Under the pieces are notes generated by a model. It worked only from the letters and a program-made list of their open reading frames with translations. It made no database searches and was not told where the DNA came from. DNA of 64,000 nucleotides, taken from the UHGV virus genome UHGV-0038495; one strand, 5' to 3'. This document shows, one piece after another, positions 1,864 to 58,882 of this stretch; positions within the stretch are counted from its first letter, which is position 1; the number at the start of each line of letters is the position of its first letter. A program made the translations under genes and the position numbers. The stretch is from a virus.

Positions 1864-2551
1864 TAATTTGTCCTTTTCTCTGTTTTACCGTCTTTCTCAG
1901 CTGACTTTGTTTTGCTCCCCTTTTGTACTTATATATTAACATAGGTTTAAGGGTTTGTCAATACCTTTTTTAAACTTTTTTGAAGAGGTTTATTTGTTTT
2001 CTTTCTCTCTTGTTTGTACTATAATAATAACAAATTTTTTGCTTTTTTGCAAGCGTTTTTGAAAAATTTTGTGTATTTTTTATGTATTTTGTATACTTTT
2101 TGTTAAATTTTTAACAATCTTTGGCGCTTTAACGCATTAAAATTGTATTTTTTTATGAGATTAAAGAACATGTATATAATTTTCAGATTGCATACAATCT
2201 TTTTGCATTAAAACATGTATACAATTTCGCTTCACAAGTGAATTATTGCATATGTCAATAGTTTCGGGTGAAATAATTGTCATGCTAATAGTTTGCTTGT
2301 CCAAGCAAATAATTCACAAGTGAAGTTTCAGTTAAATCCCTCGCTGTGACGACCGTGCCCTTTGGGCGTCACAGCGAGGGCCAGTGCTCCCAAGAACATG
2401 TGTTCGTAAACGCCTGTTCATGCTCCCGGTGCTCCCGAACATTCGTTCGTTCGTGCTCCCGCTTTAGTAGAGTAAAGTATTAAAGGACTAAAGTGATGCT
2501 CCCAACACTTTACCGCAATAGAGTGATAAAGTAGTGGGAGCATTTCACTTA
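1864..2551. repeat. Repeat-rich noncoding regulatory region, copy 1 of 3 paralogous regions
   Basis: No ORF. Contains AACATGTATACAA motifs, TTCACAAGTGAA motifs at 2232 and 2316, AATAGTTTCGGG at about 2258, five or more copies of TGCTCCC, TAAAGTG repeats and a GC-rich hairpin at 2339..2379. Confidence 0.6.
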
Positions 2552-2875
2552 TTAATAGTTTAAACCTGTAACGATATTCAGCATTGCGTCAATTTGTTCG
2601 TTGTCAAGACAATCATTGTAGAAACGAATATTTATTTCATTAATTAATATTGTAACTTTTATGTTATAAATTATATCTTTTAAATCGTGAACTTTTAAAA
2701 AGTTATTAGATAACATTATAATTGTTGTGTTGTCACTGTTGTCTATAACAAATAAATCATTGTTAATGATTTCAAAATTATAATCATTGTTACCTATTGC
2801 ATTTTCAACCGCTTGTGCTATTTCATAAATGTTTAAATGTTTATTTATTTCATTAATAATATTTATATTATTCAT
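2552..2875 (-). CDS. Small acidic hypothetical protein
   Basis: 107 aa, rich in D, E and N. Positioned in the early region. Confidence 0.4.
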   Translation of the reverse strand: MNNINIINEINKHLNIYEIAQAVENAIGNNDYNFEIINNDLFVIDNSDNTTIIMLSNNFLKVHDLKDIIYNIKVTILINEINIRFYNDCLDNEQIDAMLNIVTGLNY

Positions 2876-2892
2876 TATATTTATCTCCTGTA

Positions 2893-3234
2893 TTAATCTT
2901 CAAGATTTTCTATTGTTTTAGTTATTTCTTTAAACTTATCTTCTGAAATATTGTTATTGTCAAGGAATATTTCAAAATTACGAACTAACATTTTCGCACG
3001 AATAAAGCTCATTGCATCTTCTACATTGCCGAATGTATAATCGTTATCATATTCCCAAACTATTCTTATTACATCATTAATTGAATTAATACATAAAAAT
3101 TCGTTATCCCATTCATATGCATCAACAATTGATAGTTTTTTTTCTTCACTTTCAAATATTATATTGTAATCGTCTGTGATAATATCTATTATCTTATTAA
3201 ATAATTCTTTGAGATTTTTTCTATCTATATTCAT
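2893..3234 (-). CDS. Small acidic hypothetical protein
   Basis: 113 aa with many D/E residues (EWDNEFL, WEYDNDYTF). Confidence 0.4.
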   Translation of the reverse strand: MNIDRKNLKELFNKIIDIITDDYNIIFESEEKKLSIVDAYEWDNEFLCINSINDVIRIVWEYDNDYTFGNVEDAMSFIRAKMLVRNFEIFLDNNNISEDKFKEITKTIENLED

Positions 3235-3261
3235 ATACTTTTGTCTCCATTTCTTTTATAA

Positions 3262-3290
3262 GGCGGCTTTGCTGTAGCCGCCTTATTTTC
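3262..3290. terminator. Hairpin ggcggctttgctgtagccgcc followed by a T-rich tract (putative intrinsic terminator)
   Basis: Perfect 7-bp GC stem followed by ttattttc. Lies downstream of the minus-strand exonuclease gene, between it and the next gene. Confidence 0.35.
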
Positions 3291-3318
3291 ATTAGCAATA
3301 TTTTTCTCTTATATCTTA

Positions 3319-4026
3319 TTAAAGTTCACGACGCATCTTTTTATGTGTACTAAAGCACTTTGCTAATATTTCAGTCTCGATTAAAACGTCCTCTAAACCT
3401 GTGTGACATTCTACATACATTGGATTATTTTCCATATAACGTTTTACTGTTTCCGCCTTTACTTGCGCCCGTGGTGTTTTATGTTTTGTAATGTTGCCAT
3501 GCATAAAACAAAACTGCTGATATGTTGGGCGTTTATACAATGTATCCTGTGTCATTTTCATAATATCCCAAACAGGGTAATTCTTTAATATTGGCGGAGT
3601 CCAGTATTTACCACTCAAATAATTATTAGTTCTACAAATTGCGCCTACATCAAATCTTGCATTATAGGCACAAATTGCACGTATGCCCCAGTACTCTGCC
3701 CGTTCCTGTAAATGAAAAATTAATTCAGTCCAGTTACAAACTATATGGATACCATGTTCAATATCTTCTATATAATCCGCCCGCTTATCTGCAAAATAAC
3801 ATGAACGTATACGTTCAATTTCATCATAAAAAATATCTTTTACGATGTATGAGCCAGTTTCATATATGCGCCCTTTCTTATCTGTGATTGCATATCCCAA
3901 ATCATATACAAGCATGTTTGTACCTCTAACCGCCTGTATTGATTCGTCATATGTTGCGGTTTCCGTATCAACAACCATATAATACGTACAGCGGTTATCT
4001 TTTTTTAAAATTGGATTATAAAACAT
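3319..4026 (-). CDS. DEDDh-family 3'-5' exonuclease (DnaQ/RNase T-like)
   Basis: Motif I MVVDTETA (D-x-E), motif II YNARFD, motif III H-x4-D in ECHTGLEDVLIETE. 235 aa. Confidence 0.7.
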   Translation of the reverse strand: MFYNPILKKDNRCTYYMVVDTETATYDESIQAVRGTNMLVYDLGYAITDKKGRIYETGSYIVKDIFYDEIERIRSCYFADKRADYIEDIEHGIHIVCNWTELIFHLQERAEYWGIRAICAYNARFDVGAICRTNNYLSGKYWTPPILKNYPVWDIMKMTQDTLYKRPTYQQFCFMHGNITKHKTPRAQVKAETVKRYMENNPMYVECHTGLEDVLIETEILAKCFSTHKKMRREL

Positions 4027-4034
4027 TTAATTAT

Positions 4035-4421
4035 TTACCTTTTCTTTCTTTCTTTTGCAATAGTGACGGTAAAAGTGTCACCGAAAAATTCAAATTTAAT
4101 TTTGTTAGTTGTGCGTGGCGGTCGTTCGATATTCTCAATTGAGAATTTTTTATTGAATAACTCAATTATTGAAACTAACAATTTTTCCCTATTGTCATCA
4201 ATTTTCAACTCACGCTGAACCTTTTTCCCGTTTGGTGCTACAGCTTTTACAGTTTTACGCATCTTTTTTTCAACAGCTTTCTGTTCTTCTGTAAGTTCAA
4301 ATAACTTTGCGCCCTTGTCAATCTCTGCGTCTGATTGCAATATCTCAATCGCTTCTTCTTTTGACACGTCAAGCGATTGCATCAGATTAACAATCTGTTT
4401 TTCATCGTATTTACTTCTCAA
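4035..4421 (-). CDS. Cassette protein B, copy 2 (paralog of 1067..1429)
   Basis: 128 aa. Conserved block EIDKGAKLFELTEEQKAVEKKMRKTVKAVAPNGKK. Confidence 0.5.
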   Translation of the reverse strand: MRSKYDEKQIVNLMQSLDVSKEEAIEILQSDAEIDKGAKLFELTEEQKAVEKKMRKTVKAVAPNGKKVQRELKIDDNREKLLVSIIELFNKKFSIENIERPPRTTNKIKFEFFGDTFTVTIAKERKKR

Positions 4422-4489
4422 TGTGCTTGTATCCTTTTAATAGGTGGGAGCTTTACAGCTCCCGACCTTTAAAGTGATAACGATTAAAC

Positions 4490-4864
4490 TTACTTTACAA
4501 GTCTGAATGTCGTTGTCTTGCCGTCTTTCTCTCTGAAAATACGACCATCTTCTACGGCTGGACGGATAACGGCATTTAACTTCTGACTTGTTAAAATGCC
4601 CAGTTCGTCGAACTGTTCACGGTTGGCGGTCAACAGCTCTGTCAATGTATTCGGCGCGTCTGTGAATAATGGAAGCACTTTTTCAAGTAATTCCGCATTG
4701 GCATTGCTTGCACGCTTGCTTGTGGCGTTTGCTTTCTTTTCTAACGCCGTCTTGATATCAATTAACTTTTCAAGTACTTCATTAGTGATTTTTGATGTGT
4801 CACTATTTTTGATAGCGTCAATAGCAATATTGAGTGCTTTTACCTGTGTCATCTTGTTTGTCAT
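4490..4864 (-). CDS. Cassette protein A, copy 2 (paralog of 1501..1863)
   Basis: 124 aa. LGILTSQKLNAVIRPAVEDGRIFREKDGKTTTFRLVK. Confidence 0.5.
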   Translation of the reverse strand: MTNKMTQVKALNIAIDAIKNSDTSKITNEVLEKLIDIKTALEKKANATSKRASNANAELLEKVLPLFTDAPNTLTELLTANREQFDELGILTSQKLNAVIRPAVEDGRIFREKDGKTTTFRLVK

Positions 4865-13936: not shown

Positions 13937-15133
13937 TTGGGAAGATCATCAACAAAAAGAAAAATTTACTGCGAAAAATGTAAATCTACATATGTTGAAG
14001 ATAGTTTTTATAAAAGTAATTTGGAAAAATATGCTAAAAACAATGGTTATATGAACATTTGTAAAAAGTGTATCACAATGAATGTAGATAACTGGGACGC
14101 AGATACTTATTTACCAATTTTACAAGAAGCGGACGTGCCTTATATACCGCGCGTCTGGAATAAGTTACTTAAAACCTACTGTCAAGACCCAGCTAAGGTT
14201 AATGGTATGACCGTTATAGGTAGATACTTGGGCGCAATGCGAATGGCGCAATATAAAAAATACAGATGGAATGATACTGAATATCTTATGAAGGTAGAAG
14301 ATAATGAAAAAGAAGTATCAATGCGTCAGCAGGGAAAGACCGAGAGCGAGATTCAAAAAACCTTAGAGGAGGACCGCGCGCCATTAGAAAAGCCAGAAAT
14401 TTTTAAAGAAGCTGAACGCAAGGTCGCAGCAGAAAGCGCAACTACTTTTTCTTCTTCTCTTGCATCTAATACACAGTCTGCGGAAGAACTAGGATTAACC
14501 GAAGATGATATTAATTATCTTTCTATTAAATGGGGTAGCTCATATTCTCCTGATGAGTGGGTTAAATTAGAGCAACTCTGGGTTGAAATGAATGAATCTT
14601 ATGATATACAAACAGCGGGCGAGCGCGATAGTTTAAAAATGATTTGCAAGACCTCACTCAAGGCTCATCAATTAATAGATCTTGGAGATGTGGACGGATT
14701 TCAAAAGCTTACACGCGTGTACGAAACCCTTATGAAGCAGAACAAATTTACTTCAAGCCAGCTTCGTGATGAATCTAAGGGAATTGATTGTCTTGGTAAG
14801 TTTGTTGCGCTTTGTGAACAAGAAGGAGGTTTTATTCCACAATATTATACCCCAGAGCCGCAAGACAGAGTAGATGAGACATTGGCAGATACCAAACGTT
14901 ACCTGCGTACTCTCGTACAAACTGAATCAAGTCTTGATATGTTGATTGAAAGCGCTATTAAAGCAATAGAAAAAGAAAATGAACATACAGAACAGGATGC
15001 TATTGATGAAATAATGAAGTTTGCAGATGAAGATCCAGAATACTCACCTTTAGAGGATTATCAGGAGCTGCGCGCATTTGAAGAGCAAGAGCTTGCCGCA
15101 GATATAGAAAGAGAGGAAGAAGATGGCGCTTAA
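13937..15133 (+). CDS. Acidic protein with N-terminal zinc ribbon (candidate small terminase subunit)
   Basis: TTG start after RBS aaaggaggtg. CEKCKS...ICKKC resembles the Zn module of the upstream gene. Very acidic C-terminus. Lies immediately upstream of, and overlapping, large terminase exon 1. Confidence 0.4.
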   Translation: MGRSSTKRKIYCEKCKSTYVEDSFYKSNLEKYAKNNGYMNICKKCITMNVDNWDADTYLPILQEADVPYIPRVWNKLLKTYCQDPAKVNGMTVIGRYLGAMRMAQYKKYRWNDTEYLMKVEDNEKEVSMRQQGKTESEIQKTLEEDRAPLEKPEIFKEAERKVAAESATTFSSSLASNTQSAEELGLTEDDINYLSIKWGSSYSPDEWVKLEQLWVEMNESYDIQTAGERDSLKMICKTSLKAHQLIDLGDVDGFQKLTRVYETLMKQNKFTSSQLRDESKGIDCLGKFVALCEQEGGFIPQYYTPEPQDRVDETLADTKRYLRTLVQTESSLDMLIESAIKAIEKENEHTEQDAIDEIMKFADEDPEYSPLEDYQELRAFEEQELAADIEREEEDGA

Positions 15134-15475
15134 TGACCTATTAAATCTTTCTCACTCTAAAGAAACTGTTAAAATGGGTATGTCTGAAGAACGTCTCAAG
15201 GATGCTGTTGCAGAAGGTAGAAAAATAATTTCATTTTTTAGGTGGTATCCAGACTTATTTGTAGATTGGCTTGCGAGTTTGAATCCAGATAATAAATTCC
15301 GGTTTTATTATTATCAGCGCGTATTCTTGCGCGCGGCTCTTAGGCATAAGTATGTGTACGCCGTCTACCCTCGTGCATATTCGAAGTCATTCCTCGCGGT
15401 ATTAGCCAAAATGGTGAAAGCCATACTTTATCCTAATTCACATTCATTTGTAACTTCTGGTGGTAAAGAGCGAAA
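15123..15475 (+). CDS. terL: Large terminase subunit, exon 1 (Walker A region). 3' boundary approximate
   Basis: KYVYAVYPRAYSKSFLAVLAKMV is a deviant P-loop. Exons 1 and 2 together align with T4 gp17 (GILAEKVDELCELIPAL versus GILAHKGSMSAEVLDRTKQAIELLP). The ORF runs into intron sequence and stops at 15503. Confidence 0.7.
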
Positions 15476-16490
15476 TAGCTTGCTCTGCATTATAGAAATA
15501 TAGTGATAAATTAATTTTTTGAAATGCTGGGACGTCCTAAAGTTCAATCGCTACAATATTTATTTTATATATCAAATAAATATGAAAGAGCTGAAAAGCA
15601 GAAATAAGGATTGAAATGAATTAAGCTGAAAAGCTAAGATTTAATAATGGATAATCAGCAGTTGTAAAGGAGATATATAATTATGAGAAAATTAACTTTA
15701 AAGGAATTTCAAGAACGTTTAAATGAAATACATCCAAAAGAAAAACTTGGTGCATTAAATTATAATGGTGGGCGTAAAAAGTGTGATGTTATTTGTTTAA
15801 CTTGTGGAACAATTTATAGTAAAACAGGTGAAAATTTTTTAAGTAAAACAACTAAAAGTATTTGTAAGCAATGTTTTCCTACGCAGCCTAACACCTTAAA
15901 AGAATATAAATTACCCGAAGAATATGAATATATAGAAAATTATAAAGGAATGCATAATAAAGTTTTAATTAGGCATAAAAAATGTGGTTTTATCTGGAAA
16001 ATTACTCCTAATAACATTAAACTTGGTAAAGGTTGCCCTAAATGCAATAAAAAAGTTTCTAAAGGAGAACAAAGAATTATAAAATGGTGTGAAGCAAATA
16101 ACATAAAATTTAATACACAAGTACCTTTAAAAATGGAAGGGCATAATTTAGTTTTAGATTTTTATTTACCCGAGTATGATTTGTATGTAGAATATAACGG
16201 AGAACAGCATTATCATCCAGTGGAACATTTTGGTGGAGAAGAAAAATTTAAGAAGCAAGTAGAATTAGACAAAATAAAAGTTAATTTTTTAAAGAATAAG
16301 TTATTAGTTATCTCATATTTAGATTTTGAAAATATAGAATCTATCCTTTATAATTCAACGACTATTCCAAAAGGAAGTACACCTAAGCAGGTGGAAGCGA
16401 AAAACATCTAAAAAGATGATGATATAGTCTCAACTCTATAGAAATATAGAGTCTTTTATAAGATATGTAAAGTAGCGTTTTACATAAAAG
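15476..16490 (+). mobile_element. Group I intron 1 in terL, with homing-endonuclease ORF in a peripheral loop. Boundaries approximate
   Basis: P element aatgctggga at about 15518; Q aatcagcag at about 15655; R caacgactat at about 16358; S gatgatatagtc at 16418..16430; P9 GAAA-tetraloop hairpin ctctatagaaatatagag; 3' hairpin tgtaaagtagcgttttaca. Confidence 0.6.
15683..16411 (+). CDS. Intron-encoded homing endonuclease: two zinc fingers plus Vsr/DUF559-like (EDxHD-type) PD-(D/E)xK nuclease domain
   Basis: CLTCG...CKQC and HKKCGF...CPKC fingers. LVLDFYLPEYDLYVEYNGEQHY...FGG matches the Vsr-like E-x-(D/N)-G-x-Q-H core, as in I-Bth0305I-type enzymes. Confidence 0.55.
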   Translation: MRKLTLKEFQERLNEIHPKEKLGALNYNGGRKKCDVICLTCGTIYSKTGENFLSKTTKSICKQCFPTQPNTLKEYKLPEEYEYIENYKGMHNKVLIRHKKCGFIWKITPNNIKLGKGCPKCNKKVSKGEQRIIKWCEANNIKFNTQVPLKMEGHNLVLDFYLPEYDLYVEYNGEQHYHPVEHFGGEEKFKKQVELDKIKVNFLKNKLLVISYLDFENIESILYNSTTIPKGSTPKQVEAKNI

Positions 16491-16685
16491 ATTTTTGAAG
16501 CATCTGGCATTTTAGCCGAGAAAGTTGATGAATTATGTGAATTAATACCAGCTCTTAAGAATGAGATCTATGAAGGAAGAGGCAAGGGTACAACAAAATC
16601 AAAAGATTATACCAAGATATTATTTAAGAATGGCTCGTATATAGATAATGTAGCTGCCCGTGAAACCTCGAGAGGTAAACGTAGG
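16491..16685 (+). CDS. terL: Large terminase subunit, exon 2. Boundaries approximate
   Basis: EASGILAEKVDELCELIPALKNEIYEGRG...FKNGSYIDNVAARETSRGK aligns with T4 gp17 [20 protein letters not shown]. The reading frame then degenerates into structured intron sequence. Confidence 0.55.
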
Positions 16686-17930
16686 ACCGATGGGACTATA
16701 GAAGAGGTAGAAAAAAATAACTGCCTGTATATATCTTTACTGCTAATCCGCAGGGTCGCTATCTACTAGCGGCTAACGGGGAAGGCTGACCGTTACACAT
16801 GTATGTCAAAACATGTTTAGGCGAAGTTAATCCCGTGGGAAAATACTAATAAATATAAGTGCAAAAGGAGAAATGATGATAGGCATATACAAAGTTACTA
16901 ATAAAATTAACAATAAAGTTTATATTGGTCAAAGTATTAATATAGAAAATCGTTTTCAACAGCATAAAAATAATTGTTCAAATGAAAATTTAAAGGATTA
17001 TAATACTAAGTTTTATAGAGCTTTAAGAAAATATGGAGTTGAAAATTTTACTTTTGAAGTATTAGAAGAATTAAGTAAAGAAGAATTAAATGAACGAGAA
17101 AAATATTGGGTATCTTTTTACAATTCTTTTAAAGAAGGATATAATAGTAATGGCGGTGGAGAAAAGGTTACAGAGAGCGGAGAATTACATCCAAATGCTA
17201 AAAACTCAAACGAAACTATTATAGCATTGAAAAAAGAAATAATAGAAGGTAAATTATCTCATGCGCAGCTGGGAGAAAAATATGGAATTAGTTCTTCAGA
17301 AGTTGGCTTAATTAATTTAGGTAAACGTTGGAGCTCAGTGGGTGATTTTACTTATCCATTAAGAAAAGACCCTATTGTAAGAAAAGGCTCTCAAAATGGA
17401 CATTCTGTTTTTTCTGACGAACAAGTAATGGATATAAGAAAAAGATATGTTAATGAAAGCGGAAGAAAAATTTATGAAGATTATAAAAGCATATGTTCTT
17501 ACACAGCTTTGGAAAGAGTTCTGTTAGGTAAGACGTATACATATCTTCCAATTTATAAAAAGAAAGAGCAGCGTTGGATAAATCCAAGTAATTAATTAAT
17601 TTTTTTATTTATTAGTATAATCCTGTATCGACTATTCCGGGTTAGACTGGAAGTAGGGCTATTATTGATACATAGCTAGGTTTTAGGAAACGAAGCCTAT
17701 GAAAACCGAAAAGGATATACTCTTAGGGAGTTGACACCTCCTAGAGTAAGATATAGTCAATACCAACAGAAATGTTGGGTAAATATGAGTAGGTGTAGAT
17801 GGTACGATCCTGAATGAAGTTATAATCCCTAGATGGTGGGGCCTAGTCGCGTGAGCGATTATGGAAAAATTGCGTGAACCTAAGACAAAAGGGTGTATTA
17901 TTAAAAATAATGCTAACGGAGAAGACATCA
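16686..17930 (+). mobile_element. Group I intron 2 in terL with GIY-YIG endonuclease ORF. Boundaries approximate
   Basis: R element atcgactattcc at about 17628; S gagtaagatatagtc at 17747..17761; P9 hairpin accaacagaaatgttggg with GAAA loop. Confidence 0.5.
16873..17595 (+). CDS. GIY-YIG homing endonuclease (intron-encoded)
   Basis: N-terminus IGIYKVTNKINNKVYIGQSINIENRFQQHKNN is the GIY-YIG motif. 240 aa. RBS aaaaggag. Confidence 0.8.
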   Translation: MMIGIYKVTNKINNKVYIGQSINIENRFQQHKNNCSNENLKDYNTKFYRALRKYGVENFTFEVLEELSKEELNEREKYWVSFYNSFKEGYNSNGGGEKVTESGELHPNAKNSNETIIALKKEIIEGKLSHAQLGEKYGISSSEVGLINLGKRWSSVGDFTYPLRKDPIVRKGSQNGHSVFSDEQVMDIRKRYVNESGRKIYEDYKSICSYTALERVLLGKTYTYLPIYKKKEQRWINPSN

Positions 17931-18035
17931 AGAACTCCGTGCCAAGTTTTAAATATATTTAAAGAAGGTGTAGAGATCATGGGTGATGAATGTAGCCCAG
18001 TAGGATGGATTTTGTCACCATCCGGAGCGCGCAAC
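17931..18035 (+). CDS. terL: Large terminase subunit, exon 3 (Walker B DE). Boundaries approximate
   Basis: Open frame encodes KEGVEIMGDECSPVGWILSPSGARNN, which aligns with T4 gp17 [30 protein letters not shown]. Confidence 0.45.
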
Positions 18036-19242
18036 AACTACTAGATAGTTGATGATATGATCCAATAGATGACCATGAACATTGATAGACTTGCAGGAGA
18101 TGGCAAGAGATATGAGAATGAAATGTTAAACAAGAGCCAAATTTACGTTAAATTTTTTGGGCAAAAGGTTACAAATTTATATGTTTTATTTTTATATATA
18201 TAGAAAGCATATTTTTATTTTTTAGACATAGGAGGTCTCTATATGTACTATATATATAAAATTGAAAATCAAGTTAATCACAAAATTTATATTGGTTTAA
18301 CCAATAACATTGCTCGTAGAAGAGCAAGACATTTTACAGATTTAAGATGTAATAAACATGATAACTCTTTTTTACAAAAAGAATTTAATATTTATGGAGA
18401 AGATAATTTTTCTTTTAATATTGAATTTGAAGGAGATGTAACTCCCGAGGAAATTGGTAAAAAAGAACAAGAATATATTAAAAAATATGATAGTTATAGA
18501 AATGGCTATAATCAAAATGAAGGTGGAAATTTTGGACCTAGTAATGGAGGTACTCATTTAACACAATCGGATATTTTTAATATATTATCTGCCTTAGAAT
18601 TTTGTTCTAAACCAGGAGGGGTTTTATCTGAAATGTATGATGTAAGCAGCACTACTATCTCTAGAATAAAAAAAGGAGTAAATCATAATCAATATAAAGA
18701 AGAATATGATAAGCTGCCCCTTGAAGAAAGACAGCGTATATACAAAATTTTTTGTGATAGCACCAACTTTTACAAAAACAAAATAAATACAACAATTATA
18801 AAAAGTAAGAGAAAATTAACAAAAGAACAAGTTTTTATGATTTTGGTTAATTTTGAATATAAAATTATTACACGGGTAAAAATGGCTGAAATAGTTGGTG
18901 TTTATAGCACTTATACATTAGATTGTATAAAAAAAGGATTAACTTATAAAGATTATGCATATGAATATGAACAATTAAGTAATGACCAAAAACAAGAAAT
19001 AGCGTCCTTATTGAGAAATCAATAAGAGTAAATTTTTGAATTGCTGGGAACTCCATATTGAAATGGACAATCAGCAGCTAAGTCTTTTATATTAATAAAA
19101 GAAAAGTCCAACGACTATAATAAGTACATGCAAGCGCATGGAAGCGGAAATCCCCTTTGTGAGGGTGAAGATATAGTCTATTCTATATAGTAATATATAG
19201 CAGTTCATAAGAGAACGTATGTAAAGTAGCGATTTACATAGA
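18036..19242 (+). mobile_element. Group I intron 3 in terL with GIY-YIG endonuclease ORF. Boundaries approximate
   Basis: P element aattgctgggaa at about 19035; Q aatcagcag at about 19068; R ccaacgactat at about 19098; S gaagatatagtc at 19167..19178; P9 hairpin ctatatagtaatatatag; 3' hairpin tgtaaagtagcgatttaca as in intron 1. Confidence 0.55.
18243..19025 (+). CDS. GIY-YIG homing endonuclease (intron-encoded)
   Basis: YYIYKIENQVNHKIYIGLTNNIARRRARH is the GIY-YIG motif. 260 aa. RBS ataggaggt. Confidence 0.8.
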   Translation: MYYIYKIENQVNHKIYIGLTNNIARRRARHFTDLRCNKHDNSFLQKEFNIYGEDNFSFNIEFEGDVTPEEIGKKEQEYIKKYDSYRNGYNQNEGGNFGPSNGGTHLTQSDIFNILSALEFCSKPGGVLSEMYDVSSTTISRIKKGVNHNQYKEEYDKLPLEERQRIYKIFCDSTNFYKNKINTTIIKSKRKLTKEQVFMILVNFEYKIITRVKMAEIVGVYSTYTLDCIKKGLTYKDYAYEYEQLSNDQKQEIASLLRNQ

Positions 19243-20310
19243 ATATTAAGAACAACAGCTGGGTACAAGAATGAATATCCATACAATAAACTCATACAGA
19301 TCTTGGTACGAAGTATCGTACAACCAGATAAGGCTATCGTACTTGGAGGTACATGGCGCTTGCCAGTTCTTGAGGGTCTTCAATCTAGAAACTTTGTTAA
19401 TGATTTAAAGGCAGATGCTACTTTTAATGAAGCTTCATTTGACCGAGAATATGAGAGTCTATGGGGTGGAACTGTAGAGGACGCGTTCTTTAATGCAGAC
19501 GCATTTGATAAAAATCGTATTATTAATACCGCAGAATCTGAAGCAAGCAAGAGAATAGGAAAAGGCGGCTATTATGTTATCTCAGTCGATGTAGGACGAT
19601 TGAATGATTTATCAGATATTACAATTATTAAAGTTAATCCACAAAACTCATTATCTTCATTAAAACAAATAGTAAATCTTTATTCATTAGAAAAAATGCA
19701 TTTTGAAGATCAGGCGATTCAGATAAAGCGTCTTTATTATAAGTATGGCGCGCGGCGCGTGATTATAGATGGAAATGGTTTGGGGCATGGACTTGTGGAC
19801 TATCTCGTAAAAAGTCAGGTGGATCCAAAGACTGGAGAGTATTTTCCGCCATTTGGTGTTTATAATGACCCAGACGGTAATTATAAGCGTTTTAAAACTG
19901 GCGATACAGAAGATAATGTTTTATATATAGTTAAAGCAAATGCGCCTTTTAATACAGAAATGTATACAATCCTACAGGCGCAATTAAATGCAGGTAAGAT
20001 TAAATTCTTAATTGACGAAAGAGTTAAAAAAGAAAAGCTTTTAGCAATGAATCAAACAAAGCGAATGTCACAAGAGGAAAGAGATACTTATTTACGTCCT
20101 TTTACTCTAACTTCTATATTGCGCGAACAGTTATTAAATCTCCGAGAAGAGACCGAAGGTGTTAATATCATACTCAAGCGCGCGAACAAAAATATAAAGA
20201 AAGATAAAGTTTCTTCCCTTGGATATGGGTTATTCTATATAAAGGTAGAAGAAGATGACCCAAGTAGACGCCGGCGCCACAATATTTCAGAATTTTTATT
20301 TATGAACTAA
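19243..20310 (+). CDS. terL: Large terminase subunit, exon 4 (ATPase motif III and RNase H-like nuclease domain). 5' boundary approximate
   Basis: ILRTTAGY aligns with T4 IIITTTPNG. YVISVDVGR and VIIDGNGLG are nuclease acidic motifs. The frame is open from about 19231; the ORF track starts at TTG 19303. Confidence 0.7.
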   Translation: MLRTTAGYKNEYPYNKLIQILVRSIVQPDKAIVLGGTWRLPVLEGLQSRNFVNDLKADATFNEASFDREYESLWGGTVEDAFFNADAFDKNRIINTAESEASKRIGKGGYYVISVDVGRLNDLSDITIIKVNPQNSLSSLKQIVNLYSLEKMHFEDQAIQIKRLYYKYGARRVIIDGNGLGHGLVDYLVKSQVDPKTGEYFPPFGVYNDPDGNYKRFKTGDTEDNVLYIVKANAPFNTEMYTILQAQLNAGKIKFLIDERVKKEKLLAMNQTKRMSQEERDTYLRPFTLTSILREQLLNLREETEGVNIILKRANKNIKKDKVSSLGYGLFYIKVEEDDPSRRRRHNISEFLFMN

Positions 20311-20446
20311 AAAAAATTCTCAAAATTTTGGTCATGTCTTTATAATCGCTTTGTAAGAGTTTTTATAGGTAATAGAAGAGTGAATTTCGATTTTATCTCT
20401 TCTTTACCTCTTGCATTAAGATTGGAGGTGATAGTATGTTGGCATC

Positions 20447-20802
20447 ATTTGGCGAAAGAAAAATCCATGAAATTCTTGAATCTAATGGTATCGTTTTTCA
20501 AGAAGAATATGTGATAGATGGATTATGTTCTGAAAATGGAACGCCACTTCGATTGTCGATTTGATTTTGCAATATTTGATGACGAAGGACATTTATGTTG
20601 TTTGATAGAATATCAAGGAAAACAGCATTATGAACCTTCACAAAAATTTGGTGGAAAACGAGGTTTTTACCAACAACAACATAACGATAATAAGAAAAGA
20701 AGGTTCTGCGCTTTAAATAAAATTAATTTAATTGAGATACCTTATACTGATGAAAATTTAATTTCCTATGATTATATCATGGAGCGCGCAGGACTATTTT
20801 AA
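20447..20802 (+). pseudogene. Free-standing Vsr/DUF559-like homing endonuclease, frameshifted
   Basis: Frame A (ATG 20447) encodes MLASFGERKIHEILESNGIVFQEEY..., resembling the region before the nuclease core of 15683..16411, and stops at 20575. Frame B (20518..20802) carries RFDFAIFDDEGHLCCLIEYQGKQHY...FGG. Confidence 0.55.
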
Positions 20803-56976: not shown

Positions 56977-57504
56977 ATGTTTAACGGTAATACTAATGGT
57001 TATAGTTTAGCAGATATCGCTGCTGCTACTGGTGGTTATGGTAACAGAGATTCAGGCTGGGGCGGCGATGGCTGGTGGTTAATCCTTATCCTCATGTTCT
57101 GTTGGGGTGGCTTCGGTTATGGCGATGGCTTTGGTAGAGGTGGTTTTGGAGGAGGTACAGCAAATTCTCCAGCATTCCAAGGTGCGCTTACTAGAGCAGA
57201 CTTATGTGAAGAAAGTAACTTCAACAATTTATCTCGCGCAATAGAAAGTGGATTTAAGGGTTCTAATGAAGGTTTTGCGTCTGCGGCACTGGCTCGCGCG
57301 AATAACACTGCAGCTTTACAGAGTTCACTTTGTCAAGGTTTTAATACTGTTCAGAACACTATTACTAATGGTGATTATGATATCTTACAGTCTATTAATT
57401 CTAATACTGTTGCAAATATGCAGAATACAAATGCGATTACTGCACAGTTGAATAATATGGCAGCTCAACAGGCTAATTGCTGCTTAACTTCACAGGCAGC
57501 CTAA
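56977..57504 (+). CDS. Gly-rich membrane protein with N/Q/A-rich C-terminal region (paralogous to 58502..58882). 3' end may include intron-derived codons
   Basis: GGYGNRDSGWGGDGWWLILILMFCWGGFGYGDGFGRGGFGGG, then IESGFKGSNEGF...AAQQAN, similar to IAQGFSDLNYN...ASQQAQN of the downstream ORF. Confidence 0.45.
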   Translation: MFNGNTNGYSLADIAAATGGYGNRDSGWGGDGWWLILILMFCWGGFGYGDGFGRGGFGGGTANSPAFQGALTRADLCEESNFNNLSRAIESGFKGSNEGFASAALARANNTAALQSSLCQGFNTVQNTITNGDYDILQSINSNTVANMQNTNAITAQLNNMAAQQANCCLTSQAA

Positions 57505-57566
57505 ACGAGTAATTGTTTAGTTAACAATCCGGTGAATTGCTGGAAGGCTAAGTTTACAAAAAAATA

Positions 57567-57575
57567 TGATATAAT
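57567..57575 (+). promoter_or_regulatory. Extended -10 promoter TGATATAAT(ATA), copy 3
   Basis: Same 12-mer as at 31584 and 55523, about 37 nt upstream of ATG 57612. Confidence 0.4.
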
Positions 57576-57611
57576 ATATACATAAAAATATTTTAAAGGA
57601 GGCATAAACAA

Positions 57612-58355
57612 ATGTCTGAGAAAAAATTTTATGTATATAAATGGTTTAATACTTCTACAGGAGAAGTCTTTTATATCGGCAAAGGATGCGGAAAAAGATT
57701 TCAAGTTACAAAAAAAAGAAATCAAAAATTTCTTGATTACATATCAGAAAATCCTGTTAGTAGTGAAATCATAGAGTCTAATTTAACAGAGGAAGAAAGT
57801 TTTCAAAAAGAAAAAGAATGGTATGATTATTATAAATCTTTAAATCAATGTTCTTGTAATCTTATGGAACCTGGAACAGGAGGATTAAGTTTTGTATGGA
57901 CAGAAGAAATGAAAACTTACTGGTCTAAAAATAACCCTATGAAAAAAGAAGAACAACGTCAACGAATGAAAGAAAATAATCCTATGAAAAATCCAGAAAC
58001 CGCTTTAAAAAATGGTGCGGCTCACAAAAGAGCTGTTATTATTGGGGATAAAACTTTTGATAGTTTAAAAGAAGCAGGATTATTCTTTAATGTAAGTCCA
58101 GTGACAATTGGTAGTTGGTGTAAAAACGGAATTAGTTCAAAGGGAGAAAAATGCTCTTATGCAGATGGGAAAGGAGCTAAAAAATGCAAGAACAAAGGAA
58201 TTCCTGTTTTAATAGATGACGTTTATTATCCATCAATAGCGGACGCTGCAGCTCACTTAGATGTTTCCGCTTCTGCCATTAAATTAAGTTTAAAAAATAA
58301 TAAACCTACTAAAAATCATATTTGTAAATATGCTAATCAGCAGCCTAGCCAATGA
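57612..58355 (+). CDS. GIY-YIG homing endonuclease with NUMOD-like DNA-binding repeats
   Basis: FYVYKWFNTSTGEVFYIGKGCGKRF is the GIY-YIG motif. Repeated NNPMKK...NNPMKN motifs. Confidence 0.75.
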   Translation: MSEKKFYVYKWFNTSTGEVFYIGKGCGKRFQVTKKRNQKFLDYISENPVSSEIIESNLTEEESFQKEKEWYDYYKSLNQCSCNLMEPGTGGLSFVWTEEMKTYWSKNNPMKKEEQRQRMKENNPMKNPETALKNGAAHKRAVIIGDKTFDSLKEAGLFFNVSPVTIGSWCKNGISSKGEKCSYADGKGAKKCKNKGIPVLIDDVYYPSIADAAAHLDVSASAIKLSLKNNKPTKNHICKYANQQPSQ

Positions 58356-58501
58356 AAGTCAATAAAAGTAATTGGAAGGTTCAACGACTAATGGGTGAGC
58401 TATGACAAGCAATAAACCCAACACGAGTGCCGGACTCCTTTTATAAAAAGGATGAAGATATAGTCTGAACTATATGGAAACATATAGAAATAAGGAATAA
58501 A

Positions 58502-58882
58502 ATGCCTTATGATAACAATATTGGTGAAACTAAAACTCAGATAGCTCAAGGTTTCTCAGACCTTAACTACAATCTCGCGACCCAAGAGTGTCAGACTAGA
58601 CAGGCAGTAACAGATAGTGCAAGAGACATAATTGATAATCAGAATGCAAATACTCGCTCAATCCTTGACTTCTTAACTCAGGATAGACTGGCTTCATTAA
58701 CTGCTGAAAATCAGTCACTTAAATTTGCAGCTTCACAACAGGCTCAGAATGCTTACCTTGTACAGCAACTTGGCGCGAAACCTGCAGCACCAGCATATGT
58801 AGTACCAAATCCTTATACTGGTTCTTATAATTATAACTATGGTGGATGCGGCTGCAATTACAACACTGGCGCACTCGCATAA
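58502..58882 (+). CDS. N/Q/A-rich protein with C-terminal CGC motif. Either a paralog of 56977..57504 or exon 2 of the same gene
   Basis: 126 aa. The frame is open upstream to 58469, so an exon junction just before the ATG is possible. Confidence 0.4.
   Translation: MPYDNNIGETKTQIAQGFSDLNYNLATQECQTRQAVTDSARDIIDNQNANTRSILDFLTQDRLASLTAENQSLKFAASQQAQNAYLVQQLGAKPAAPAYVVPNPYTGSYNYNYGGCGCNYNTGALA

Follow-up and report, generated by a model that had tools for sequence, protein, structure and literature searches.

A phage large terminase gene interrupted by four predicted group I introns, three of which carry homing endonuclease genes

The genes td, nrdB and nrdD (sunY) of phage T4 are nucleotide-metabolism genes with one intron each, and these introns carry I-TevI, I-TevII and I-TevIII. 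The introns of orf142 of Staphylococcus phage Twort were reportedly described by Landthaler and Shub in 1999. As cited in PMC11878797, orf142 contains three closely spaced group I introns with short internal exons. TerL genes with two to three spliced group I introns were published for the Bastillevirinae, such as Bacillus phages SIOphi, phiAGATE and Moonbeam (PMC11878797, NAR 2025), and phrog_559 was identified there as a VSR-like endonuclease specific to TerL introns. Here, a TerL gene with five exons and four introns was located at 15123-20310 of virus genome UHGV-0038495; the window, meaning the whole stretch of DNA that was analysed, is 64,000 nt long. Introns account for 3448 of the 5188 nt of the gene. 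We consider it very probable that this is the TerL of an SPbeta/YonF-like tailed phage, one essential late gene interrupted by four independently acquired group I introns. The features are as follows.

15123..15471, + strand: TerL exon 1 (349 nt; amino acids 1-116 and the first base of the Q117 codon)
15472..16497, + strand: intron A (1026 nt; group I, T4-like IA type; guide gcttGctct 15478-86, P2 15488-505, P9 16434-51, 3' hairpin 16466-84)
15683..16411, + strand: intron A homing endonuclease (242 aa; treble-clef zinc finger and putative VSR/DUF559-like nuclease domain)
16498..16708, + strand: TerL exon 2 (211 nt; ASGILAEKV...RRTDGTIEE and two bases of V187)
16709..17787, + strand: intron B (1079 nt; group I; guide actGcct 16720-26, P7.1, P7.2, P8, P9 17763-78)
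16873..17595, + strand: intron B homing endonuclease (240 aa; GIY-YIG)
17788..17830, + strand: TerL exon 3 (43-nt mini-exon; third base of V187, then VGVDGTILNEVIIP)
17831..18071, + strand: intron C (241 nt, no ORF; group I-like with P7.1 and P7.2; guide atggtGggg 17833-41, P2 17844-61 with GUGA loop, P3 17870-76 with 18028-34, P 17914-25, Q 17933-43, R 17967-79, P8 18035-51, S 18051-63)
18072..18148, + strand: TerL exon 4 (77-nt mini-exon; TMNIDRLAGDGKRYENEMLNKSQIY and two bases of V)
18149..19250, + strand: intron D (1102 nt; group I, T4-like IA type; P2 19011-22, P9 19183-200, 3' hairpin 19220-38)
18243..19025, + strand: intron D homing endonuclease (260 aa; GIY-YIG)
19251..20310, + strand: TerL exon 5 (1060 nt; third base of V, then TTAGYKNEY... 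to the stop)

The joined exons formed an open frame of 1740 nt encoding a TerL of 579 aa. More than 100 homologues without introns (574-578 aa) were collinear with this spliced translation and showed no gaps where the exons meet. Exon 1 was delimited by tblastn with the intron-less TerL of Enterococcus phage H1 and Geobacillus E3, and contig L004 was collinear with it as far as 15471. It contains YQR and the Walker A-like PRAYSKS, where an earlier note on this DNA had correctly placed Walker A. The Walker B strand lies in exon 2, as does the acidic pair EE, and the Walker B motif GTIEEV spans the exon 2/3 junction. The exon 3 residues VGVDGTILNEVIIP agreed with VDGQKLSEVVIP of E3 and with the family consensus VGVDGTILSEVIIP, and in L004 and L008 exons 2 and 3 were continuous. 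The exon 4/5 join was uninterrupted in P0001 and L004 (SQIYVTTAGYK). Together, the mini-exons encode the invariant residues P200, M202, N203 and R206. The C-motif and the entire nuclease domain are located in exon 5, for which tblastn found 122 phage records with the annotation TerL or YonF; this exon matched the PHROG TerL families phrog_2, phrog_5909 and phrog_5713 weakly, and its fold matched TerL nuclease domains. No second TerL was found among the ORFs of at least 120 aa within the window.

The junctions were placed at 15471/16498, 16708/17788, 17830/18072 and 18148/19251, and all of them are base-exact because related contigs lack subsets of the introns. L004 and L008 lack introns A, B and D and both have C, and L005 lacks B, C and D. 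Intron A was missing in L004 and L008 precisely at 15471/16498, while introns B and D were missing in L004, L005 and L008 at 16708/17788 and 18148/19251, respectively. Intron C was missing in L005 and in all full-length homologues at about 60% identity. All four introns were present in the same order in contigs from three samples, representing three independent assemblies. L057 and L058 were 99.7-99.8% identical to the window over the locus and had all four introns, as did a contig of ERR7738938 (L055/L056) that was 100% identical to the window and may be the same strain. Each of the introns has G as its final base (G16497, G17787, G18071 and G19250), and the last exon base is U before B, C and D and C before A. 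The exons were 98% identical to those of L004 in protein and about 95% identical in DNA, indicating purifying selection. The earlier note had proposed a TerL gene broken by endonuclease-bearing group I introns, and this was borne out. Its count of three introns and four exons was replaced by four and five on the evidence of the intron-less alleles and the more than 100 homologues, and none of its six junction coordinates (15475/16491, 16685/17931 and 18035/19243) matched those of the alleles. An endonuclease in every intron, as it had claimed, was found for A, B and D but not for C, that is, for three of the four.

Judged by its modelled fold, the product is a large terminase with ATPase and nuclease domains. 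The AF2 model of a 61%-identical homologue had a pLDDT of 88.4, and when this model was compared with the PDB by Foldseek, the top 37 matches were all large terminases, both for the full length and for each domain separately. The top match was T4 gp17 (E 4.8e-17, 11% identity). By sequence, the protein falls in the SPbeta YonF-like family, that of Firmicutes siphophages of 130-140 kb, with kin in SPbeta (YonF), Enterococcus phages H1, EF1 and VRE9, Geobacillus E3 and the Lactococcus 949-group phages, and it had no match in Pfam (Terminase families), NCBIfam or the PDB sequences. Alignment of the TerL profile with gp17 by hhalign was weak (probability 1.4%, E 0.037); the motifs nonetheless lined up, with GLIEEC set against the gp17 Walker B motif IYIDEC. 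The description of the gene as T4-like therefore holds for the fold but not for the sequence. The protein shares with the solved large terminases (T4 gp17; PDB 3cpe, 5oe8, 6z6d and 4idh) the two-domain fold and the motif order of YQR, Walker A, Walker B, C-motif and RNase H-like nuclease, at an identity of 9-12%.

A search with the group I model RF00028, as the earlier note had suggested, detected intron D above threshold (101.9 bits against a gathering score of 50, E 3e-25, full model 1-253, 18986-19200), whereas A and B gave partial matches below it and C gave none. Intron D has a full set of P (19039-49), Q (19069-77), R (19109-18) and S (19168-78). Its endonuclease ORF lies in the P1 loop, before P, has the ribosome-binding site taggagg and ends with its stop codon in P2. 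The protein matched Pfam GIY-YIG (38.2 bits, cut-off 22.6), TIGR01453 slightly under the cut-off (55.4 against 56.05 bits) and phrog_7168. The guide is probably aGcgt near 19002; the inferred P1, with a U.G pair, would be weak at only 4 bp, and no P10 was found in the guide-pairing search. In a related intron of L004, the 3' hairpin differed by two compensatory changes. The sequence GATATAGTC occurred 7 times in the window, compared with 0.49 expected.

Intron A has P at 15522-32, Q at 15653-61, R at 16356-65 and S at 16418-29, and in P, Q, R, S and P9 its sequence is almost the same as that of D. The threefold order of P, Q, R and S that had been reported is complete in D and present in A, where P and S each have one mismatch, but B differs in P and Q. 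The GNRA-loop hairpin after each S (16434-51, 17763-78 and 19183-200) and the 3' hairpin common to the first and last endonuclease introns (16466-84 and 19220-38) were both found as described. Intron A matched RF00028 partially (34.2 bits, E 9e-7, 16295-16451), below the gathering score of 50 because the 729-nt ORF splits the core. This ORF sits in the P6 loop, between Q and R, so the endonuclease ORFs of the first and last introns do occupy different loops, as had been stated. It is preceded by the ribosome-binding site aaaggag, and at the 3' end it overlaps with R, P3' and P8. The protein matched Pfam DUF4379 (27 bits, cut-off 24.5), DUF559 under the cut-off (16.7 against 20.6 bits) and, with an E value of 4e-46, phrog_559, described as a VSR-fold endonuclease of TerL introns (PMC11878797); it had no match among the PDB sequences. 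The guide complements the joined exon ends agagc|aagc without a mismatch (9 bp; distance from the 5' splice site, 11 nt) and was the unique best match. At this splice site C15471 is paired with G15482, giving a C-G and not a U.G pair. To our knowledge, U.G is near-universal at the 5' splice site of group I introns. Alternative U...G junctions for intron A were rejected, as the invariant Q117 was lost and there was no guide sequence.

In intron B, the P-like taacggggaagg (16774-85) and the Q-like aatcccgtggg (16829-39) differ from P and Q of A and D, while S is exact (17748-58) and R (17627-35) has an altered 5' end. A 12-bp stem (16844-55 with 17606-17) closes the ORF loop, and the assignment of P3 is tentative. 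Pairing of aggU with Gcct and of act with agt (P10) gave the guide 7 bp. In one search RF00028 matched intron B weakly and partially at 17.3 bits, and in another it did not match. Homologous cores were found in EF1 and, at the same codon position, in the TerL of Enterococcus phage VRE9_3. In the 3' half (P7, P7.1, P7.2 and P9; three sequences), 27 pairs were 96% paired with 7 double changes; pairing fell to 27-41% when the partners were slid, and 0 of 500 shuffles were as high. The endonuclease ORF has the ribosome-binding site aaaaggag, and its product matched Pfam GIY-YIG (41.2 bits, cut-off 22.6), TIGR01453 'group I intron endonuclease' (82.4 bits, cut-off 56.05), phrog_7168 and phrog_314.

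The guide of intron C complements cccU|accat over 9 bp (P1 and P10), lies 8 nt from the splice site and was the unique best match. Intron C also has P6, P7 with a bulged A, P7.1 and P7.2, an unusual insert of two hairpins between P3 and P4, and a final G 8 nt past P7. Its R motif GUAGAGA(C/U) aligned with the R of the model in an RF00028-positive intron on L012, and a 345-nt endonuclease remnant was present in the P8 loop of the L008 intron C. Across three sequences, from which the structure with its P3/P7 pseudoknot was itself partly derived, 73 pairs were 99.1% paired with 6 double changes, compared with 37-45% when the partners were slid. The group I status of B and C is supported by guide pairing, terminal G and compensatory base changes.

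We infer self-splicing, endonuclease activity and homing at the TerL locus. The gene would be transcribed as a single precursor, in which each intron would fold so that its guide holds the end of the upstream exon (P1) and the beginning of the downstream one (P10). The introns would leave via two guanosine-dependent transesterifications, as is typical of group I ribozymes, and splicing would unite the five exons into the TerL frame. Introns A, B and D carry homing endonuclease genes of the free-standing type, each with its own ribosome-binding site, whose products would cut intron-less alleles in co-infecting relatives, with repair copying the intron in; this would account for the presence and absence of introns in close relatives. 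Intron C has lost its endonuclease, of which a relative keeps the remnant, and would persist as a bare ribozyme. Of the insertion sites, one directly follows the conserved SGGKE motif, one is in Walker B, one just past Walker B and one in the C-motif, all in the most conserved ATPase-coding DNA, and relatives have an additional intron in Walker A. Such sites would be expected of endonucleases with invariant target sequences.

Exons 3 and 4 total 120 nt, and exons 2 and 4 end in the same codon phase; therefore, a join of the B 5' to the D 3' splice site would keep the frame and produce a TerL shortened by 40 residues, which run from Walker B to the C-motif. Such a skipped-exon TerL, inactive or regulatory, could time DNA packaging; exon skipping has precedents in Twort and SIOphi. 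Furthermore, B and C may be a distinct group I structural subclass undetected by RF00028, with a two-hairpin domain between P3 and P4, P7.1 and P7.2, and in C also without P5 and P9, and intron A would be a natural functional case in which the 5' splice site has a C-G pair. We regard these readings, a TerL isoform by exon skipping and a B/C subclass with a functional C-G in A, as unlikely.

Another explanation is that C, and perhaps B, has ceased to be an autonomous ribozyme and is a degenerate group I derivative, dependent for its removal on a protein cofactor or on an adjacent intron, or that it is lost along with the flanking mini-exons through exon skipping. Intron C as modelled has neither P5 nor P9, has lost its endonuclease and had no match to RF00028 even at E<=10 (341-nt search), and in the Bastillevirinae some introns splice only in vivo and the SIOphi TerL skips an internal exon (PMC11878797). 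However, P1, P10, P3, P4, P6, P7, P8 and the terminal G of intron C are intact and conserved at 80% sequence identity, and accurate removal of the introns must occur because TerL is essential and the mini-exons encode its invariant residues. We regard this explanation as quite improbable.

The original three-intron, four-exon arrangement, with 17931-18035 (MGDECSPVGWILSPSGAR) as a coding exon holding Walker B, is scarcely credible. The segment does offer a 56-aa open frame and a DE dipeptide, in 'MGDEC' (MGDECSP...), but it lies inside the ORF-less intron C (17831-18071), where it folds into conserved helices (P6a, R, P7.1, P7.2 and P3') with compensatory changes. MGDECSPVGWILSPSGAR was found in no homologue, whereas homologues have VGVDGTILNEVIIP and TMNIDR...SQIY, that is, the overlooked mini-exons VGVDGTILNEVIIP (17788-17830) and TMNIDRLAGDGKRYENEMLNKSQIY (18072-18148), with IIP joined directly to TMN in L005 and in all full-length homologues. 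Furthermore, the three-intron junctions cannot give both a kept frame and a terminal G. A decaying pseudogene or an assembly chimera of strains, conceivable for metagenome-derived material with intron sets that differ among close relatives, is equally hard to credit given the identical arrangement in three independent assemblies, the intact exons under purifying selection and the lack of a second TerL among the window's ORFs of at least 120 aa.

On the preferred reading of one TerL gene with four introns, this gut phage gene is a dense example of a published phenomenon and no new kind of system. As in the Bastillevirinae, TerL is split by several IA-type group I introns, most of them with an endonuclease in a loop, a phrog_559 endonuclease and small internal exons are present, and standard models often detect one half of a ribozyme or none. 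The Bastillevirinae have at most three introns per gene in PMC11878797, compared with four here, and belong to the Herelleviridae, whereas this is an SPbeta/YonF-like siphophage and the TerL sequence families are unrelated; moreover, the C at one 5' splice site is unlike the Bastillevirinae, and splicing was experimental there and is predicted from sequence here. An intron-dense late gene, short internal exons and possible exon skipping are shared with Twort orf142, in which the introns are without ORFs and interrupt a tail tube gene, whereas here three of four carry endonucleases and interrupt TerL. Introns A and D have the P, Q, R and S consensus of the T4 td, nrdB and nrdD (sunY) type, and the T4 introns and this gene have in common that GIY-YIG endonuclease ORFs occupy peripheral loops and enter core helices with their ends.

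On the + strand between 14 and 21.5 kb, the ORFs consisted of one of 126 aa starting at 15123, three of 240–260 aa, and one of 335 aa ending at 20310, flanked by genes for a 398-aa protein and a 543-aa portal protein. The three middle ORFs encoded endonucleases, the second of which gave no record in an exact-sequence look-up:

15683-16411, +, intron A endonuclease (phrog_559, VSR-like, E 4e-46; DUF4379 zinc finger)
16873-17595, +, intron B endonuclease, GIY-YIG (TIGR01453 "group I intron endonuclease" passed, 82 bits)
18243-19025, +, intron D endonuclease, GIY-YIG

Used as a tblastn query, the last ORF matched 122 phage records, which were large terminase (TerL)/YonF proteins of 130–165 kb Firmicutes siphophages (Enterococcus H1, EF1, and VRE9; Geobacillus E3; SPbeta-like Bacillus phages; the Lactococcus 949 group; and gut phage Phass-1). 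No match was found when the locus was compared by megablast with 50,697 phage records. Two intron-less TerL proteins, from Enterococcus phage H1 and from Geobacillus E3, were then used as tblastn queries against the window. Exons 1, 2, and the last exon of the four-exon gene proposed in an earlier note were recovered, while its third exon (about 17931-18035) had no match and now falls inside an intron. The same search revealed additional coding stretches at 17795-17830 (VDGTILNEVIIP) and at about 18075-18146 (MNIDRLAGDG...NKSQIY). In a database search, the provisional spliced protein matched more than 100 full-length homologues (574–578 aa, about 60% identity) without gaps at the junctions, and also three partial proteins with 75–98% identity. 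Joining 15123-15471, 16498-16708, 17788-17830, 18072-18148, and 19251-20310 gave 1740 nt with an open 579-aa frame reading ...SGGKEQASGI..., ...GTIEEVVGVDGTILNEVIIPTMNIDR..., and ...SQIYVTTAGY..., a residue-for-residue match to the family consensus. All four intron sites were in or adjoining conserved ATPase motifs:

15472-16497, +, intron A, at the Q117 codon, directly after the conserved SGGKE motif
16709-17787, +, intron B, in Walker B
17831-18071, +, intron C, without an ORF, 14 codons downstream of B
18149-19250, +, intron D, in the IYV|TTAG C-motif

Pfam, NCBIfam, and PDB sequence searches with the fragments, the spliced protein, and the family profile gave no terminase match. An initial AlphaFold model from a shallow alignment was unusable (pLDDT 39) and was redone with an alignment of 55 diverse relatives that an exhaustive profile search had supplied; the model of a 61%-identical homologue, standing in for the TerL of the window, reached a pLDDT of 88. 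The top 37 Foldseek matches in the PDB were all large terminases, the best being T4 gp17 (E 4.8e-17, 11% identity), and a weak gp17 profile alignment kept the motifs YQR, SRQLGKT/PRAYSKS (Walker A), and IYIDEC/GLIEEC (Walker B) in register. The gene was identified as TerL because of these fold matches and the motif register; the earlier description of it as T4-like holds for the fold but not for the sequence. Among representatives of the TerL family, which had roughly 1800 members in the profile search, many fragments began or ended recurrently at profile positions 72, 93-96, 131, 180, 189, 201, 225-227, 239-240, 293-294 (seven clusters), 336, and 405, and several proteins of 620–1013 aa matched the profile in two stretches. 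These recurrent break points suggest that the family may hold many more intron or intein sites.

Inteins were ruled out by stop codons in all frames and by the presence of RNA cores, and TAG-to-Gln recoding, considered because the relative Phass-1 lies in the code 15 clade, was discarded because the intervening sequences contain in-frame TGA and TAA. The contigs encoding the three partial proteins were natural intron-minus alleles. Contig L004 (95% DNA identity) was uninterrupted at 15471/16498, 16708/17788, and 18148/19251 and retained the 241-nt element 17831-18071; L008 (about 80% identity) likewise retained this element and lacked the other three; and L005 (72–78% identity) lacked the last three elements, including 17831-18071. 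All four insertions occurred in unchanged order in contigs from three samples: L057 and L058 were 99.7–99.8% identical to the window, and the ERR7738938 contig (L055/L056) was 100% identical and may represent the same strain. The four-intron arrangement is not an assembly chimera, because contigs from three samples share all four introns in order.

Relatives also carried introns at other sites. L004 had a further, D-like TerL intron that interrupts the codons of Walker A at PR|AYSKS (L004 1-68), and L005 had a different, unrelated 270-nt ORF-less intron (L005 1610-1879) after GG|KEQ, 7 nt upstream of site A, with a guide, ctttGccg, complementary to both exon ends. At the insertion sites, the exon bases of intron-plus and intron-minus alleles (window versus L004) diverged more than the surrounding exon, for example aaagagc|aagca versus aaggagcaggca and atttacgt|aacaaca versus atatacgtgacaacc. 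This divergence would fit co-conversion tracts, or changes in the target site that prevent cleavage.

In a search of the whole window with the Rfam group I intron model RF00028, the single match above the curated threshold was at 18986-19200 (101.9 bits), and intron D is certainly a group I intron. Narrower searches gave two more partial matches below threshold, at 16295-16451 (34.2 bits) and 17748-17777 (17.3 bits). The earlier group I assignment of three introns was borne out by the model at threshold for intron D; in the other TerL introns the matches were partial and sub-threshold or absent. A P1/P10 guide for intron D was sought, and nothing convincing was found beyond a 4-bp pairing; exon 4 also matches the 3' hairpin of this intron over 7 bp, but this was rejected as a guide, being at chance level in a hairpin that covaries as a local stem.

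Introns A and D were near-identical base for base in P, Q, R, S, P9, and the 3' hairpin. The internal guide of intron A, gcttGctct (15478-86), complemented the ligated exons agagc|aagc perfectly, was the unique best match within the intron, and lay 11 nt from the splice site. At this splice site the exon ends in C, where U is near-universal; alternative junctions using U were rejected, since they give up the invariant Q117 and lack a guide. Intron B had the guide actGcct, an ORF loop closed by a 12-bp stem, R, S, and a P9 with a GAAA loop; a dedicated RF00028 search of it gave no match. Homologous cores were found in the TerL gene of Enterococcus phage VRE9_3, at the identical codon position, and in EF1. 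Across these three sequences, P7.1, P7.2, and P9 showed seven double compensatory changes, and the covariation set was 96% paired versus 27–41% in slid controls.

RF00028 matched neither intron C nor the related introns in contigs L004, L005, and L008. Intron C is preceded by U and ends in G; 8 nt from the splice site lies its guide, atggtGggg, which forms 9 bp with cccU|accat. It could be drawn with P2 (GUGA loop), P3, P4, P6, P7 (bulged A), P7.1, P7.2, and P8, comprising 73 pairs that were 99% paired, the window and L008 differing by six double changes; as modelled, it has neither a P5 helix nor P9. Its GGUGUAGAGAUCA motif is the R element according to the Rfam alignment of an RF00028-positive intron in contig L012. 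The same alignment led us to assign GAAGGUGUAGAGA to the R element and to reject it as an IC3-type S element, and TATGG/CCTAAG was rejected as a tetraloop receptor because the L008 changes were not compensatory. Both B and C are modelled with extra hairpins between P3 and P4, and their structural assignments are tentative. The P8 loop of the L008 intron contained a 345-nt endonuclease gene remnant, of which the window keeps the last codons alone (VDDMIQ*). A 16-mer scan of IMG/VR with the R motif of intron C gave 41 loci, nearly all chance matches in coding DNA, and just L012 and L041 resembled related introns. L012 (IMG/VR 3300029922_001130), an unrelated viral contig, had three RF00028 matches (53.7, 43.4, and 50.2 bits) within 1.3 kb (52-1296) and represents another multi-intron phage gene.

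Two other features were present in the window:

57505-58495 (approximate), +, fifth group I intron (RF00028 48.6 bits, E 4.7e-11, 58253-58487, just sub-threshold)
20436-20802, +, small VSR/DUF2726-like endonuclease between TerL and the portal gene (phrog_559, phrog_9084)

The fifth intron encloses a GIY-YIG-like ORF (57612-58355) and splits a gene of unknown function (56977-58882, +) into 56977-57504 and 58502-58882. The small endonuclease, a relative of the intron A enzyme in its nuclease domain, lies in two overlapping frames of 42 and 94 aa, a split common to L004, and represents a frameshifted pseudogene or else what remains of a free-standing homing endonuclease. Immediately upstream of TerL is a gene with a YonG_N domain (13937-15133, phrog_3314). 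In the 99%-identical L057 and L058, this gene is broken by a 1.1-kb HNH/NUMOD4 endonuclease insert at window position 14689/14690, which the window lacks; L008 has a similar insert, and a 35-nt S+P9 element there is 94% identical to window 58455-58489.

TerL is the standard marker in phage classification and in choosing genome starts. Here it appears as five ORF fragments together with three endonuclease genes, no terminase model of Pfam or NCBIfam recognises the fragments, and in related cultured Enterococcus phages such fragments are called hypothetical. The interrupted TerL genes of these cultured phages are unannotated: VRE9_3 (L052, PP680569) has an N-terminal TerL fragment plus one GIY-YIG and one HNH endonuclease at 2030-4648, in a genome linearised inside the TerL gene, and in EF1 and EF5 the C-terminal half is split by an HNH endonuclease. 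At threshold, RF00028 detected one of the four TerL introns, or one of five when the fifth intron of the window is counted; group I introns are therefore probably undercounted in phage metagenomes. With four introns in one gene and more occupied sites in close relatives, this family is a useful natural system, in which one could study how homing endonucleases compete, how introns are gained and lost, and whether packaging is delayed or gated by the splicing of several introns.

Group I introns were reported in 5 of 52 TerL genes of Bastillevirinae, "some ... split by two or three", together with VSR-type endonucleases of phrog_559 that are confined to TerL introns, ribozyme halves overlooked by models, an internal exon of small size, and skipping of an exon in the SIOphi TerL (PMC11878797, 2025); three introns in Twort orf142 are cited there. 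The four-intron TerL is an instance of this known phenomenon, and its moderate interest lies in annotation, the RF00028 sensitivity gap, and the unusual C-G splice site. Compared with the Bastillevirinae introns, the phenomenon is shared, whereas the phage lineage and the TerL sequence family differ, and the gene in the window has one intron more than we found reported.
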